NCBI RefSeq assembly: GCF_003018115.1
Contig: NZ_CP027457.1
From: Escherichia coli
Lineage (GTDB): Bacteria > Pseudomonadota > Gammaproteobacteria > Enterobacterales > Enterobacteriaceae
DNA length: 64,000 nt
Reading direction: 5' to 3' (one strand)
Shown: piece after piece, positions 37,048-52,948 of the stretch
How the letters are laid out: each line of letters begins with the position of its first letter
How positions within the stretch are numbered: position 1 is the first letter of the stretch
The notes under the pieces: model-generated
What the model was told of the DNA's origin: nothing
Database searches by the model: none
What the model saw: only the letters and a program-made list of their open reading frames with translations
Program-made: the position numbers and the translations under genes

Positions 37048-40000
37048 TTAGTTATTTTGTTGACAGAAAACAGCAATCTCCTGGTCCAGCTCTGCAATGT
37101 GTTCTTTTACAGAGTTCAGCAACTGAAGAATTTCAGGCTTACTGTCATCTGAAACAGGTGTTATTTCTAACTGATGGCTAATATTAATCAACTTTTGCAA
37201 ATTCAGGATGTTAGCCGCACCGTGGATGCGATGAATACACTGATGGAAAGTTCTATTATCGCCAGCTTCTAGTGCATGAAACGCAGCGGATAAATCTTTA
37301 TGTGTTTCATGCTGGAAAGTCATGAGAATCTCCTGCATCAGTTGTAGATCGTTCGCCGTATTATTTTTCAGGGCCTCGATATCAAGGTGGCGATACTGAG
37401 GTACAATATGCGCAACCTGGTGTAACTGACTTAAATGTGTTTTCAGTACATCCAGGGTCAACGGTTTGAACAAACATAAGTTCATGCCGCAATTTAACCC
37501 TTTTTCACGTTCGTTAGCCTGTGCGTTGGCTGTAAGCCCCCAGATGGGTAAGGACGAATTTTGCTCACGGAGTTTGCGAGTCAACTCAAAACCATCCATA
37601 TTCGGCATATTAACGTCAGTAATAAGCAGATCATAATGTTGCATACTGACTTTGTGTAGCGCTTGCACACCATCAGTGGCTTCGTCAACATCATATCCTA
37701 ATAGATTTAGCTGGCGTTTGAGTAATAGCCTGTTGGTCGGATGATCATCCGCGATTAATATGCTCAACTTTTCAGGTAGTGTGATAGGTTGTTCTGCTTT
37801 TGCCTCGACAGCCGCCACTTGTTGGGTAATTTCTACCGGGATTGTGATCGTAAATGTTGTTCCTATGCCTGGATGACTTTCTAATGACAAATCACCCTGC
37901 ATGTTTTTAATTAATTCTTTGCAGATCATTAAGCCTAAACCAGAACCTGTTTGCTGACGACCTGCACTTGTTTGGCTATAACGTTTAAACAGTTGTTGTT
38001 GTTCTTCCTGTGATAATCCACTTCCAGAATCCATAATCGTCATTTTGATTACAGCGTGGTTGTCATCAATGTGACCCAGGGAGGTCGTAATTTTTACTGC
38101 CCCCTCGGTGGTAAATTTGAGAGCATTACTCAGTAAATTTGATAAGACCTGCTTAAACGCCTGAGGGTCGATCTTAACTAGGTAATGTTCAGGAAACGTA
38201 CTGCTGCAACTTAATGCGATCGATTTGCTTGCAGCAATCGCACCGAAAGAGTGACAAGTGTTCTGGACTAAAGTAGGAATATCGACCCATTGTGGTTGAA
38301 GTTGATAGTTACCCGATTCAATTTTGTCGACATCAAGGATTTCACCAATTAAGCCGAGGAGTGATTGTCCGGTGGCGTAGGCAAGTGAAATCGCCTCCAC
38401 CCGTTGTTCCTTGCTAAGACCAGAACCCGACAGAAGTTCCAGGAAGCCCATAATAGAGCTTATTGGTGTTCTTATTTCGTGACTCATCGTTGCCAGAAAC
38501 TGACTTTTTGCTACGGTAGCCTTTATCGCTTTATTTTTTTCTACCTCGAGTGCATTAATTAGATCACGCGTTTCAGTAATATCTTGCCAACCACAAATAT
38601 ATACTGCATTGTCACTTGCAGGAAGATTGCATAATGTATGCCAGTGATTAATGCATCTTTTCTCGATGCCATTATCAATTTCAAATACCTGTGTGTATAT
38701 TGTTCGGTTTTCTTTCGTCTCTGCTGTGACTTCATGCGTATTAGAAAAAACATCTTTAAAGGGTGATTCACTGTTTTCTAATGGCAACATTGCATTTTTG
38801 TAGTAATCAGCAGTGAAATAATGTTCAAATGCACTATTGTGACTAATGACATTACCTTGCCAGTTTACAACATAAGTTGGATTCGGTAAGGAGTCCGAGA
38901 GCGCTTTCCGGAATGATATTTGGTTTTCTAAATCACCCTGAATGACTTTACGACGACGAACTGAGCGTAACAGGTAGAATCCCCATAAAAGGCTACTGCC
39001 AACTAATAAAACGGATAATGTCGTAACAATATAAAATTGCTCGCTATAGAGGTCCCATGTGTCAATGGTCACATTGGGCATTTTAATCCATTTTTCCGTC
39101 AGGCGCAGAACTTCGCTTGGGGGGATTGCATTCAGTGCTTTATTAATAATATCCTTAAGTTCCGGTTCTCCGCGAGGAAAAGCGAACGAAAGCGATGCAT
39201 TCGGAACGCCGGGAATAAGAAAATGATAAAGTTCATTAGGATAGTAATGGTCGATCATGTAACGCGAATTTAGCTGTGTCGCGACCAGAGCATCAAGTTC
39301 ACCTTCCTTGACCTTGTGAAATGCAGCGCTGGCGTTATCGACTTTTATCCACTCTACCTCCGGATACATCTCTTTTAATTGCGAATGCAGCTCATAATAA
39401 TATGGAATGGCAACTTTCATTCCTTTTTTTAATGTTTGTTCACTGTCAGGCGCTTTTTGCATGACAAAAACGTAAGGCGTTGTTATGAAGGCTTCAGCAA
39501 ATAAAACATTATTTTCTCTATCTTCACTATAAATAGCACCGGGTAATATATCCCATCCGCCGGGATTCAGCTGTGTTCCGGCATGGATATTGTGTGAAAC
39601 GGTGATCGGAGAAAAATTTAAACCTGTTTGCAAGGTAATAATATTAAGAATGTCCCCCATAACGCCCCGAACCGAGCCATTTTCATCCGTCATAGAATAG
39701 GGGGGCGAGTAAGGATTTTCCAGCACCTTTAAATCGGGATGCTGCTTAATCCACTGTTTTTCATGTTCAGTGAGTTCTAATGGCTTGTTCAGAAAGGCTA
39801 GGTTTCCTGTATCAAGCCAATTTTGTGATACTTCATAGCGAACTTCATTTGTTAAAGCATCAACAAATCGATTGAGTACTTCATTAAGAATGACAGATTC
39901 TTTTCTGGTTAAGAAGAAGTTATATTGACGCGGTGAGTTATAATATTTCACTACATTTAAGGAGTGAGTGAAATAGCGGGAAATCATACTGCTGGTAATG

Positions 40001-48728: not shown

Positions 48729-48762
48729 TTTAATCATCCTGGTTAAGCAAATTTGGTGAATT

Positions 48763-48774
48763 GTTAACGTTAAC
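48763..48774. promoter_or_regulatory. candidate CscR operator (12-bp palindrome), copy 1
   Basis: gttaacgttaac in the cscA-cscK divergent intergenic region. Confidence 0.4.
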
Positions 48775-48826
48775 TTTTATAAAAATAAAGTCCCTTACTT
48801 TCATAAATGCGATGAATATCACAAAT

Positions 48827-48838
48827 GTTAACGTTAAC
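48827..48838. promoter_or_regulatory. candidate CscR operator (12-bp palindrome), copy 2
   Basis: Identical gttaacgttaac 64 bp from copy 1. Confidence 0.4.
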
Positions 48839-48943
48839 TATGACATTTTGTGATCGAATATGCATGTTTTAGTAAATCCATGACGATTTTGCGAAAAAGA
48901 GGTTTATCACTATGCGTAAGTCAGATGAATTTAAGGGAAAAAA

Positions 48944-49929: not shown

Positions 49930-51177
49930 ATGGCACTGAATATCCCATTCAGAAATGCGTACTATCGTTTTGCATCCAGTTACTCATTTCTCTTTTTTAT
50001 TTCCTGGTCGCTGTGGTGGTCGTTATACGCTATTTGGCTGAAAGGACATCTAGGGTTGACAGGGACGGAATTAGGTACACTTTATTCGGTCAACCAGTTT
50101 ACCAGCATTCTATTTATGATGTTCTACGGCATCGTTCAGGATAAACTCGGTCTGAAGAAACCACTCATCTGGTGTATGAGTTTCATCCTGGTCTTGACCG
50201 GACCGTTTATGATTTACGTTTATGAACCGTTACTGCAAAGCAATTTTTCTGTAGGTCTAATTCTGGGGGCGCTCTTTTTTGGCTTGGGGTATCTGGCGGG
50301 ATGCGGTTTGCTTGACAGCTTCACCGAAAAAATGGCGCGAAATTTTCATTTCGAATATGGAACAGCGCGCGCCTGGGGATCTTTTGGCTATGCTATTGGC
50401 GCGTTCTTTGCCGGCATATTTTTTAGTATCAATCCCCATATCAACTTCTGGTTGGTCTCGCTATTTGGCGCTGTATTTATGATGATCAACATGCGTTTTA
50501 AAGATAAGGATCACCAGTGCGTAGCGGCGGATGCGGGAGGGGTAAAAAAAGAGGATTTTATCGCAGTTTTCAAGGATCGAAACTTCTGGGTTTTCGTCAT
50601 ATTTATTGTGGGGACGTGGTCTTTCTATAACATTTTTGATCAACAACTTTTTCCTGTCTTTTATGCAGGTTTATTCGAATCACACGATGTAGGAACGCGC
50701 CTGTATGGTTATCTCAACTCATTCCAGGTGGTACTCGAAGCAGTGTGCATGGCGATTATTCCTTTCTTTGTGAATCGGGTAGGGCCAAAAAATGCATTAC
50801 TTATCGGTGTTGTGATTATGGCGTTGCGTATCCTTTCCTGCGCGCTGTTCGTTAACCCCTGGATTATTTCATTAGTGAAGCTGTTACATGCCATTGAGGT
50901 TCCACTTTGTGTCATATCCGTCTTCAAATACAGCGTGGCAAACTTTGATAAGCGCCTGTCGTCGACGATCTTTCTGATTGGTTTTCAAATTGCCAGTTCG
51001 CTTGGGATTGTGCTGCTTTCAACGCCGACTGGGATACTCTTTGACCACGCAGGCTACCAGACAGTTTTCTTCGCAATTTCGGGTATTGTCTGCCTGATGT
51101 TGCTATTTGGCATTTTCTTCCTGAGTAAAAAACGCGAGCAAATAGTTATGGAAACGCCTGTACCTTCAGCAATATAG
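49930..51177 (+). CDS. cscB: sucrose:H+ symporter (MFS, oligosaccharide:H+ symporter family)
   Basis: 415 aa, 12-TM LacY-like protein. Confidence 0.92.
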   Translation: MALNIPFRNAYYRFASSYSFLFFISWSLWWSLYAIWLKGHLGLTGTELGTLYSVNQFTSILFMMFYGIVQDKLGLKKPLIWCMSFILVLTGPFMIYVYEPLLQSNFSVGLILGALFFGLGYLAGCGLLDSFTEKMARNFHFEYGTARAWGSFGYAIGAFFAGIFFSINPHINFWLVSLFGAVFMMINMRFKDKDHQCVAADAGGVKKEDFIAVFKDRNFWVFVIFIVGTWSFYNIFDQQLFPVFYAGLFESHDVGTRLYGYLNSFQVVLEAVCMAIIPFFVNRVGPKNALLIGVVIMALRILSCALFVNPWIISLVKLLHAIEVPLCVISVFKYSVANFDKRLSSTIFLIGFQIASSLGIVLLSTPTGILFDHAGYQTVFFAISGIVCLMLLFGIFFLSKKREQIVMETPVPSAI

Positions 51178-51296
51178 ACGTAAACTTTTTCCGGTTGTTG
51201 TCGATATCTCCATATCCCTCAACCGGAAAATAATAATAGTAAAATGCTTAGCCCTGGTGACTGCTCCCCGCCCTGTCGGGCGAGGCTTCCCACTTC

Positions 51297-52466
51297 TTAA
51301 GCTGCAACCGTCTGTGTGACGGATTTACGCTGGCCTCCATGGGCAGAAACGACGAGTCCCGCCGCTTGTAATTCCAGTATGCCCTTGCGTTTGATGTTGA
51401 GCGCCGCGTTGATATCGCGGTCATGTTCAACTCCACACTCTGGACACTGCCAGATGCGCTTATGTAATGGCATCTCCGACATTTTGTGACCGCAGCAGTG
51501 GCAGATTTTCGAACTGGCGAACCATTGATCCAGTTTCACCAGATGCACACCTTTCTCTGTTGCTTTGTATTCCAGTTTTGTGATGAATCCAGACCATCCA
51601 GCATCGCCTATCGCACGAGCCAGATGGTGATTTTTCATCATATTTGCCGTTTTCAATGTCTCGACAATTACCGCTTGGTTTTCGTCAACAATTGCGCGAG
51701 ATAACTTGTGCTGGAAATCGGCACGGGCACTGGCTACCCGTTCGTGAACGGCTGCAAGTTGTATTCTGGCTTTGCGCCTGTTTGCGCTCCCTTTTTTCTT
51801 ACGGGACAGTGCTTTCTGCTTCCGGCGAAGGTTGCGACTTGCATTGATTAGGTGGCGGGGACTGGCAATTTTATTGCCGTCCGATTTGATGACAAAATGC
51901 GCCAGCCCCATATCCAGCCCTGTCACATTTGATATCAGTGCGGGCTTTGCCGGCGCTTCCATCCCGTCGTCACAGAGTAACGACGCGTAGTATTTCCCGG
52001 TTGCGCTGCGGCTCAACGTGATACTTTTCAGCATTCCCGTAATTTCACGATGTAAACGCGCTTCAATCGGCAAGATTTTCGGTATTTTTATCGCACCATC
52101 AAGGACTTTTATGCCAACACAATGATAGCTCGATTGTCTGCCGTGTTTACTTTTAAAGGTAGGTTTACCTGCTTTCAGTTTCGGATTGAAAAAGTTAGAA
52201 AAAGCCACGTCGAGGTTAATTACCGCCTGCTGCAACGCAATAGAATCATATTCTTTAAGCCATCCATACCGGCGGGATTTCTTCGCCACTGCAAGCAGTG
52301 GTTTGAGGTCTTTACGCGGGTTTAAATTTACGCGGTGCCGCTGGTAAGAATGTTTCTTGATATGCAGAGCTTTGTTGTACGCAAAACGCACTGCACCGAA
52401 CTGGGCGTTGATAAATTCAGCCTGTTCTGGTGTCGGGTAGATGCGTACTTTTGTTGCTCTTAACAT
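51297..52466 (-). CDS. tnpB: TnpB (OrfB) RuvC-like RNA-guided endonuclease of the IS200/IS605 family
   Basis: 389 aa; N-terminal HTH-like region, RuvC-I (GLDMGL), RuvC-II (VIVETLK), zinc ribbon CHCCGH...CPECG, RuvC-III (HDRDINAALNI). Confidence 0.9.
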   Translation of the reverse strand: MLRATKVRIYPTPEQAEFINAQFGAVRFAYNKALHIKKHSYQRHRVNLNPRKDLKPLLAVAKKSRRYGWLKEYDSIALQQAVINLDVAFSNFFNPKLKAGKPTFKSKHGRQSSYHCVGIKVLDGAIKIPKILPIEARLHREITGMLKSITLSRSATGKYYASLLCDDGMEAPAKPALISNVTGLDMGLAHFVIKSDGNKIASPRHLINASRNLRRKQKALSRKKKGSANRRKARIQLAAVHERVASARADFQHKLSRAIVDENQAVIVETLKTANMMKNHHLARAIGDAGWSGFITKLEYKATEKGVHLVKLDQWFASSKICHCCGHKMSEMPLHKRIWQCPECGVEHDRDINAALNIKRKGILELQAAGLVVSAHGGQRKSVTQTVAA

Positions 52467-52522
52467 AATCAGCGCTCATTGATATAATTCTTTTATTTTA
52501 ACGCTTTAGGTGAATATATCAA

Positions 52523-52948
52523 TTGAGTAATCATGATGATTTACTGGCGGGATTTCTCCGCAAACGACACAGTGTCAGTAAGCTGGTTGTGCACCTTATT
52601 TTTACGACAAAGTATCGACGCAAACTATTCGACAGTCAGATGATCGCTCAGTTGCGTGAGGCTTTTGGCTCCGCTGCGGCAAAGCTTGAATGCGAAATTA
52701 TTGAGATGGACGGGGAGCCAGACCATGTACACCTGCTGGTTGCCTACCCGCCAAAACTGGCGGTCAGTGTGATGGTCAATAATTTAAAATCGGTATCATC
52801 ACGTTTGCTACGCCAGCAGAACGCGCATTTACGTATGCAGAGTAAAACGGGGCTTTTGTGGTCGAGATCGTACTTTGTCTGTAGCACCGGAGGGGCAACG
52901 ATTGAAACGCTCAGAGCCTACGTTCAGAGTCAGTCAACACCTGATTGA
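52523..52948 (+). CDS. tnpA: IS200-type Y1 (HuH) transposase TnpA
   Basis: 141 aa; HuH motif HVHLLV, conserved TTKYRR, catalytic Tyr region (SRSYFV). Confidence 0.88.
   Translation: MSNHDDLLAGFLRKRHSVSKLVVHLIFTTKYRRKLFDSQMIAQLREAFGSAAAKLECEIIEMDGEPDHVHLLVAYPPKLAVSVMVNNLKSVSSRLLRQQNAHLRMQSKTGLLWSRSYFVCSTGGATIETLRAYVQSQSTPD

Follow-up and report, generated by a model that had tools for sequence, protein, structure and literature searches.

What is a long, perfect inverted repeat doing between a sucrose permease gene and an IS200/IS605-family element? In the 64,000-nt stretch of Escherichia coli DNA analysed here (hereafter, the window), 119 bp separate cscB from the stop codon of tnpB (51297), and within this gap an inverted repeat begins 10 nt downstream of the cscB stop codon TAG (51175–51177). 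The initial annotation described it as an 11-bp perfect stem with a 22-nt loop lying immediately after cscB, which, having no U-tract, is not a canonical intrinsic terminator. Coordinates of the features discussed are collected in Table 1.

Table 1. Features around the cscB-proximal inverted repeat (positions in the window)
Feature	Position	Strand	Detail	Basis
cscB	49930–51177	+	sucrose permease	ORF list; RefSeq annotation, identical strain F9792
Putative sigma-28 −35 element	51181–51188	+	TAAACTTT; consensus TAAAGTTT	weight matrix; consensus from PMC2859248
Left arm	51187–51197	+	TTTTCCGGTTG; end of the −35, then 9 promoter spacer bases out of 11	sequence, fold, alignment
Putative sigma-28 −10 element	51200–51207	+	GTCGATAT; consensus GCCGATAA; critical CGA at 51202–51204; inside the loop	
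Predicted FliA-dependent start	51212–51214	+	6 nt after the −10 octamer; inside the loop	analogy with aer
Right arm	51220–51230	+	CAACCGGAAAA; in intact loci ends 7–10 nt before the MCP ATG	sequence, alignment
Decayed 5′ stub of MCP gene	51231–51256	+	former start codon ATA at 51236–51238	alignment A1
IS right-end flank	51241–51256	−	site of the 16-nt omega-RNA guide equivalent	IS boundary
ISEc46	51257–53019	−	IS200/IS605 family	other copies match exactly this span; RefSeq annotation
Subterminal hairpin, IS right end	51266–51285	−	CCTCGCCC GACA GGGCGGGG	fold and sequence
tnpB	51297–52466	−	within ISEc46	
tnpA	52523–52948	+	within ISEc46	
Subterminal hairpin, IS left end	52982–53003		counterpart of the right-end hairpin	fold and sequence
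Target TTAG	53020–53023		on the complement; adjoins the ISEc46 left end	

A stable hairpin without terminator features

The sequence confirmed this description. The two arms pair at 11 of 11 positions and are separated by 22 nt (51198–51219), and the bases beyond the stem, TAATAATAG on the + strand and AGTTTACG on the − strand, contain no U-run on either. Folded as RNA, the hairpin has a free energy of −17.1 kcal/mol (z = −3.7), and none of 200 shuffled sequences was equally stable. A first-order Markov model predicts, in 64 kb, 0.69 perfect inverted repeats with arms of 11 bp or more and loops no longer than 40 nt, which scales to ~0.001 for the 119-bp gap. The fold stability and the low random expectation together indicate that the hairpin is not a chance feature.

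The hairpin lacks the hallmarks of an intrinsic terminator, having no U-run, a 22-nt loop and A-U pairs at the stem base (4 of the 11 pairs); the terminator scan likewise made no call at the hairpin, which bears out the original assessment, and neither did the sigma-70 promoter scan. None of the Rfam 15 covariance models matched the hairpin, even at E ≤ 10. In this strain, the loop holds a 5-bp inner stem (GATAT 51203–07 / ATATC 51212–16) that is not conserved elsewhere, and it also holds the −10 element of a putative sigma-28 promoter. Elsewhere in the window, the arms have only chance-level matches with one mismatch, and a search for arms or other repeats linking both ends of the csc segment revealed nothing meaningful.

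Association with a chemoreceptor gene

To either side of the species boundary, the arms are unchanged next to cscB, namely in a divergent E. coli locus (L004; CscB identity 95%) and in two genomes of Citrobacter amalonaticus (CscB identity 91–92%), with inter-arm distances of 22, 25 and 26 nt among these loci. In Citrobacter, the right arm is followed after 7–8 nt by the ATG of a gene whose 370-aa product has HAMP and MCPsignal domains (Pfam); next to this chemoreceptor (MCP) gene, on its downstream side, lies fbp in the opposite orientation. A metagenome scan for both arms, together with the genomic contexts of MCP orthologues, provided loci in which the same repeat occurs without csc: six, L144 and L147 among them, with the order yjfF-hairpin-MCP-fbp-mpl and two, from Salmonella enterica, with the order ppa-hairpin-MCP-fbp. 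The MCP start codon lies 7–10 nt after the right arm in every intact locus, whereas more distant cscB orthologues (83–71% identical) lack the repeat and carry ordinary terminators composed of a stem and a T-run. Because the repeat occurs without csc at a fixed distance from the MCP ATG, it belongs to the chemoreceptor gene and not to cscB. The suggestion that the hairpin might be part of the csc island holds only as far as linkage is concerned, the same repeat being found without csc in other Enterobacteriaceae.

E. coli retains ~30 nt of the MCP ORF. This stub is ~68% identical to the start of the Citrobacter ORF over ~31 nt, a stretch comprising the 26 nt after the hairpin and a few more from IS-free strains. 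The hairpin in this window is a fossil of the control region of a truncated chemoreceptor gene, and a literature search found no published description of the element.

The distribution of the repeat also bears on the possibility that the stem-loop forms the 3′ end of the cscKB mRNA, acting either as a weak or Rho-assisted terminator devoid of a U-tract or as a transcript-stabilising structure that blocks 3′ exonucleases. Its proximity to the cscB stop codon and the stability of the stem fit such a role, the stretch from cscB to the IS holds no other terminator, and in other cscB orthologues a terminator occupies the corresponding position; in E. coli, an incidental effect of this kind is quite possible. 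Yet the repeat persists unchanged where no csc gene lies upstream, always in register with the MCP start codon, it lacks a U-tract on both strands, and beyond the E. coli/Citrobacter amalonaticus group it is missing from the cscB orthologues. A repeat that is missing from other cscB orthologues and present without csc did not evolve for cscB, and we regard a primary function at the mRNA 3′ end as unlikely.

Two further observations were made during these comparisons. First, canonical terminators directly follow cscB in Pluralibacter, Raoultella and two metagenome lineages (L012, L014, L015 and L017), those of L014 and L015 being bidirectional and serving convergent fbp as well; csc adjoins fbp in several genera, with or without a chemoreceptor gene in between. 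Second, unrelated long near-perfect hairpins (TTTCCGGTTGACCGTGG…CCACGGTCAACCGGAAA, with the flanks ‘ttttggcc…aaattgaaat’) recur in environmental contigs, ten of which were recorded; these metagenome matches were discarded, having only the 10-mers of the search pattern in common with the repeat.

A sigma-28 promoter match spanning the left arm and the loop

The sigma-28 (FliA) consensus is TAAAGTTT-n11-GCCGATAA, with CGA at −11 to −9 and with T-32 and A-30 being critical; the mapped aer start lies 6 nt after the −10 octamer (PMC2859248). The segment following cscB reads TAAACTTT-N11-GTCGATAT, that is, it has the 11-nt spacing and a −35 element matching the consensus at 7 of 8 positions, the last two bases of which (51187–51188) are the first two of the left arm. 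The 52 FliA ChIP-seq sites reported for E. coli K-12 by Fitzgerald et al. (Table 2; PMC4183435) were used to derive a weight matrix. The 28-mer at 51181–51208 scores 23.06 bits, which would rank fifth against the 52 sites, between yhjH/motAB and hypD/tsr, and is the best FliA site on either strand of the window (128 kb of strands scanned). By analogy with aer, FliA-dependent transcription is predicted to begin at ~51213, a position between the left and the right arm.

The promoter match is shared by the orthologous sites associated with an intact MCP gene (15.6–25.2 bits), where it lies 38–67 nt upstream of the HAMP+MCPsignal gene that is truncated in this window. No lineage with an intact gene has lost the −35 or the −10 element or departed from the 11-nt spacing; TAAA of the −35 is invariant in 13 of 13 aligned versions, as are the G-CGATA columns of the −10, and the GTCGATA variant of the −10 has been seen in published bound sites (holA, hslU, rluF, yjdA and evgS). 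One E. coli variant has lost a T of the T-run, leaving a 10-nt spacer, and scores 11.1 bits, a drop of the kind that would be expected of a decaying relic. In about half of the sequenced E. coli, cscB would be followed directly by a high-scoring, outward-facing orphan FliA promoter, which is invisible to K-12 flagellar-regulon maps, the K-12 strains used for ChIP-seq being devoid of csc.

As a positive control, the matrix recovered TCAACTTCAACCACAATGGGTCGATATT inside evgS (38278–38305, − strand), a published K-12 intragenic FliA site, here with one base different. The second-best sigma-28-like match in the window, TAAAAATACCGAAAATCTTGCCGATTGA (52063–52090, − strand), is located on the sense strand of tnpB; its score of 16.2 bits is mid-range among real FliA sites, and the match may be due to chance.

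Conservation of pairing

Conservation of the repeat was assessed in an alignment of 13 sequences (A1) with a 12-pair helix. The helix is formed in 96% of the alignment cells, compared with 35–57% when the 3′ partner is slid by 1–3 columns, and it is the only consensus structure predicted by RNAalifold. Eight of the 12 pairs never vary. In Salmonella, a C-G to U-G change retains a G·U pair, and in the L144/L147 lineage two adjacent pairs have changed on both sides (G-C to A-U and U-A to C-G). The covariation is thin, comprising this one lineage and one wobble. Across loci, the arms are fixed and the distance between them is anywhere from 22 to 40 nt, and the left arm consists mostly of promoter spacer, which is otherwise unconserved in sigma-28 promoters. 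Judged from these alignments, the pairing, the variable loop and the conserved spacer favour a selected hairpin over a protein site of fixed geometry, and, because the G·U pair is retained, selection probably acts at the RNA level.

The conservation of both arms, at the same time, exceeds what pairing by itself demands, and a site bound by a protein could also account for it. The arms could be half-sites for a DNA-binding regulator that bracket the −10 element, that is, an operator and not an RNA structure: they flank the −10 symmetrically and are nearly invariant even though the MCP proteins are only 72% identical. However, a distance between the arms that varies from 22 to 40 nt is hard to reconcile with a fixed dimer, the L144/L147 arms have changed in a complementary way, the Salmonella substitution preserves only an RNA-type G·U pair, and no known motif was recognised in the arms. 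We therefore consider an operator quite unlikely.

The repeat is linked to the MCP gene, matches a sigma-28 promoter as well as bona fide sites do, and has conserved its pairing. The best explanation overall, and in our judgement a likely one, is that it represents the conserved promoter and leader of the gene for the 370-aa chemoreceptor, of which E. coli carries a relic.

Breakpoints next to cscB and origin of the E. coli csc locus

Three different breakpoints next to cscB are seen among the Escherichia loci. In Escherichia sp. MOD1-EC7003 (L003, 4300–4341), the breakpoint lies inside the loop (…TTGTCGATAGCTC|GTAACCGGCTC…), which leaves this locus without a right arm; in E. coli SCPM-O-B-8794 (L004, 4299–4330), it falls right after the right arm, where a diverged DUF4942-like sequence is joined; and in most E. 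coli, it is found ~30 nt after the right arm. Nor does the hairpin mark the junction between the csc island and the IS, as the initial annotation had considered, the junction being situated ~30 nt further to the right. The occurrence of three breakpoints within ~60 bp, with the IS target TTAG at the last one, might point to a recombination or rearrangement hotspot, either a DNA cruciform or a site joining csc to different neighbours. Against this, the repeat is single-copy, has no associated recombinase, and its arms are unlike attC, dif or IS ends; the clustering may mean no more than that deletions end before they reach cscB, which is under selection, and a function as promoter and leader accounts for the conservation seen in intact loci. 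We thus deem a hotspot very improbable.

The E. coli-type csc locus has been found in a few Citrobacter genomes by a survey from 2024, which suggested transfer from E. coli (PMC11251922). The Citrobacter copies include a complete chemoreceptor gene in its usual fbp-mpl neighbourhood, whereas E. coli has only the first ~30 nt of this gene. Since the MCP gene is intact in Citrobacter and a stub in E. coli, the E. coli csc locus appears to derive from a Citrobacter-like arrangement: the csc genes probably arrived together with the promoter-hairpin and the MCP stub from a Citrobacter-like chromosome, the rest having been lost. The right boundary, on which this comparison is based, argues for transfer from Citrobacter to E. 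coli, the direction opposite to that of the 2024 survey (PMC11251922). At the left csc boundary, tblastn found no remnant of yjfF; weak blastn and tblastx matches between the dsdX-cscR spacer and yjfF were rejected, being out of frame and vanishing in tblastn. The DUF4942 fragment is single-copy and always linked to csc, and gives no finer placing of the island junction. The divergent cscA-cscK promoter region also contains two LacI-type palindromes, (A)ATTGTTAACGTTAACT (48759–48775 and 48823–48839), which are presumably CscR operators.

The hairpin is older than, and separate from, ISEc46

The question raised at the outset included a role for the neighbouring IS, the initial annotation having placed the hairpin exactly where a TnpB guide or flank, or the right-end boundary of the IS, would be. 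We compared the segment 50700–51700 by megablast with 5426 complete E. coli genomes. IS-free csc loci match 50700–51256, and other ISEc46 copies match from 51257 onwards. Five other copies of ISEc46 have identical ends, the right one starting with GTGACTGC, and unrelated flanks; the left end of every copy reads …TTCGC followed by TAA(G), corresponding to the conserved target TTAG (top strand of the element). A 16-nt TnpB guide would correspond to the right-end flank of this copy (51241–51256), which stops 10 nt short of the hairpin. Neither the boundary nor the guide thus coincides with the repeat.

The 63-nt hairpin region is present once per genome in ~2640 of the 5426 genomes, always on the chromosome and never on plasmids, and this single location per genome excludes a dispersed repeat (REP, MITE or similar). 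The IS occupies the csc-adjacent site in just 7 genomes, and ~2630 have the hairpin with no IS there. The proposal that the hairpin could be part of the IS had been accompanied by the suggestion to align csc loci of IS-free strains, where an unchanged hairpin would speak against it. This is what we found: with a joined empty-site query, XH990 and other IS-free strains are 100% identical through the flank, then continue with CTAA into the DUF4942 gene fragment, and the hairpin of IS-free EDL933 differs in one loop base. ISEc46 was inserted later, 26 bp to the right of the hairpin and 3′ of TTAG, into an XH990- or EDL933-like sequence. A function of the hairpin in ISEc46, be it right-end recognition, an omega-RNA scaffold or guide, or the marking of an IS/csc junction, has in its favour just the 26-bp proximity on the guide side, and the IS-free genomes, the unrelated flanks of the other copies, the guide-length flank ending at 51241 and the subterminal hairpins that the IS itself possesses leave it practically dismissed. 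We conclude with high confidence that the hairpin is the promoter and leader of an MCP gene and neither part of the IS nor a csc terminator; it is accordingly unsuitable for defining the ends, omega-RNA or guide of ISEc46.

Below the Rfam threshold, a match to HgcC (E = 0.79) spans 51241–51356 (− strand), extending exactly 16 nt beyond the IS end, and sot0042 weakly matches the tnpB 3′ end and the IS right end; both are RNA families linked to IS200/IS605 omega-RNAs.

The left flank of ISEc46 (53020–53330) is a truncated gene for an Arm-type integrase beside tRNA-Arg (argW), not the DUF4942 fragment. In none of the genomes searched is the csc flank joined directly to the integrase remnant; therefore, the right flank was replaced after the insertion of the IS. 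After insertion, the IS probably mediated the loss of island content lying between csc and argW, possibly by recombination between two IS copies.

A possible filter against read-through transcripts

In its home context in Citrobacter and relatives, where the order is yjfF or cscB, hairpin, MCP, fbp and mpl, the segment would act as a class-3 flagellar sigma-28 promoter whose parts are interlaced with the helix: the left arm begins within the −35 and its remainder belongs to the spacer, the −10 sits in the loop, and the right arm would cover a GGA ribosome-binding motif. This GGA is the only one of the leader in intact loci and likely serves as the Shine-Dalgarno sequence, albeit a weak one. 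RNA started by FliA would begin in the loop and lack the left arm, keeping the ribosome site open, whereas read-through RNA entering from upstream (from yjfF, or from cscB where csc is present) would have both arms, fold and hide that site. Because pairing needs both arms and the FliA transcript is without the left one, the helix would form only in RNA entering from upstream. The chemoreceptor would then be made exclusively from transcripts of the flagellar regulon and be insulated from read-through expression; the read-through RNA, being untranslated, would be accessible to Rho and might be trimmed back to, and capped by, the stem.

Folding predictions for seven intact loci agree with this scheme, the probability that GGA is unpaired being 0.00–0.07 in read-through RNA and 0.33–0.74 in FliA-started RNA, a difference that is near-automatic once the helix is assumed. 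On this modelling, we find insulation from read-through plausible while leaning slightly against it. A promoter spacer that is conserved because it pairs with the ribosome site of the very gene it serves would offer a chromosomal gene an elegant means of disregarding read-through.

In E. coli, the relic might at most cap cscKB read-through RNA and act as an orphan FliA promoter firing rightwards. That the repeat is a ‘transcript-origin filter’, permitting translation of the MCP only from FliA-initiated mRNA, and that in addition the orphan copy is still live as a strong FliA promoter in about half of E. coli, is a conjunction that we hold to be unlikely. If true, the promoter would, in strains like this one, fire into the right end of ISEc46, producing a motility-coupled RNA antisense to the tnpB 3′ end and the omega-RNA.

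Comparison with known systems

The likeness of the hairpin to the subterminal hairpins of IS200/IS605 elements and to TnpB omega-RNAs is that it adjoins the right end of an element of this family. Unlike these structures, it is external to the element, the flanks of the five other ISEc46 copies do not contain it, and the hairpins of ISEc46 itself have GC-rich 8-bp stems and 4–5-nt loops. With Rho-independent terminators and 3′ stabilising stem-loops, it shares a stable stem just past a stop codon, but it differs in its long, interrupted loop, the A-U pairs at the stem base, the missing U-tract and a spacing that is fixed relative to the downstream ATG and not to the upstream stop codon.

The resemblance to class-3 flagellar promoters (tar, tsr, trg, aer, motAB and fliC) includes the TAAA-type −35, the 11-nt spacer, the −10 with its CGA core, the location directly upstream of a chemoreceptor gene and a matrix score among those of the strongest in vivo FliA sites. 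In contrast to these promoters, the spacer itself is conserved here and is complementary to the leader before the start codon, a complementarity for which nothing alike was found among the 52 E. coli K-12 sites (PMC4183435), and the E. coli copy is an orphan, the gene it served having been deleted.

The proposed mechanism has its closest parallel in the transposase genes of IS10 and IS50, which are reportedly protected against outside transcription by a fold-back structure, as is said to have been described by Davis, Simons and Kleckner in 1985 and by Krebs and Reznikoff in 1986. The same geometry, with the 5′ arm upstream of the gene’s own start, the 3′ arm over the ribosome-binding site and a hairpin formed only by read-through RNA, would hold here provided that the predicted start site is right. 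The system would differ in that it concerns a chromosomal chemotaxis gene of the flagellar regulon and not a transposase gene, with a function deduced from folding only, and in that the 5′ arm is the promoter spacer itself.
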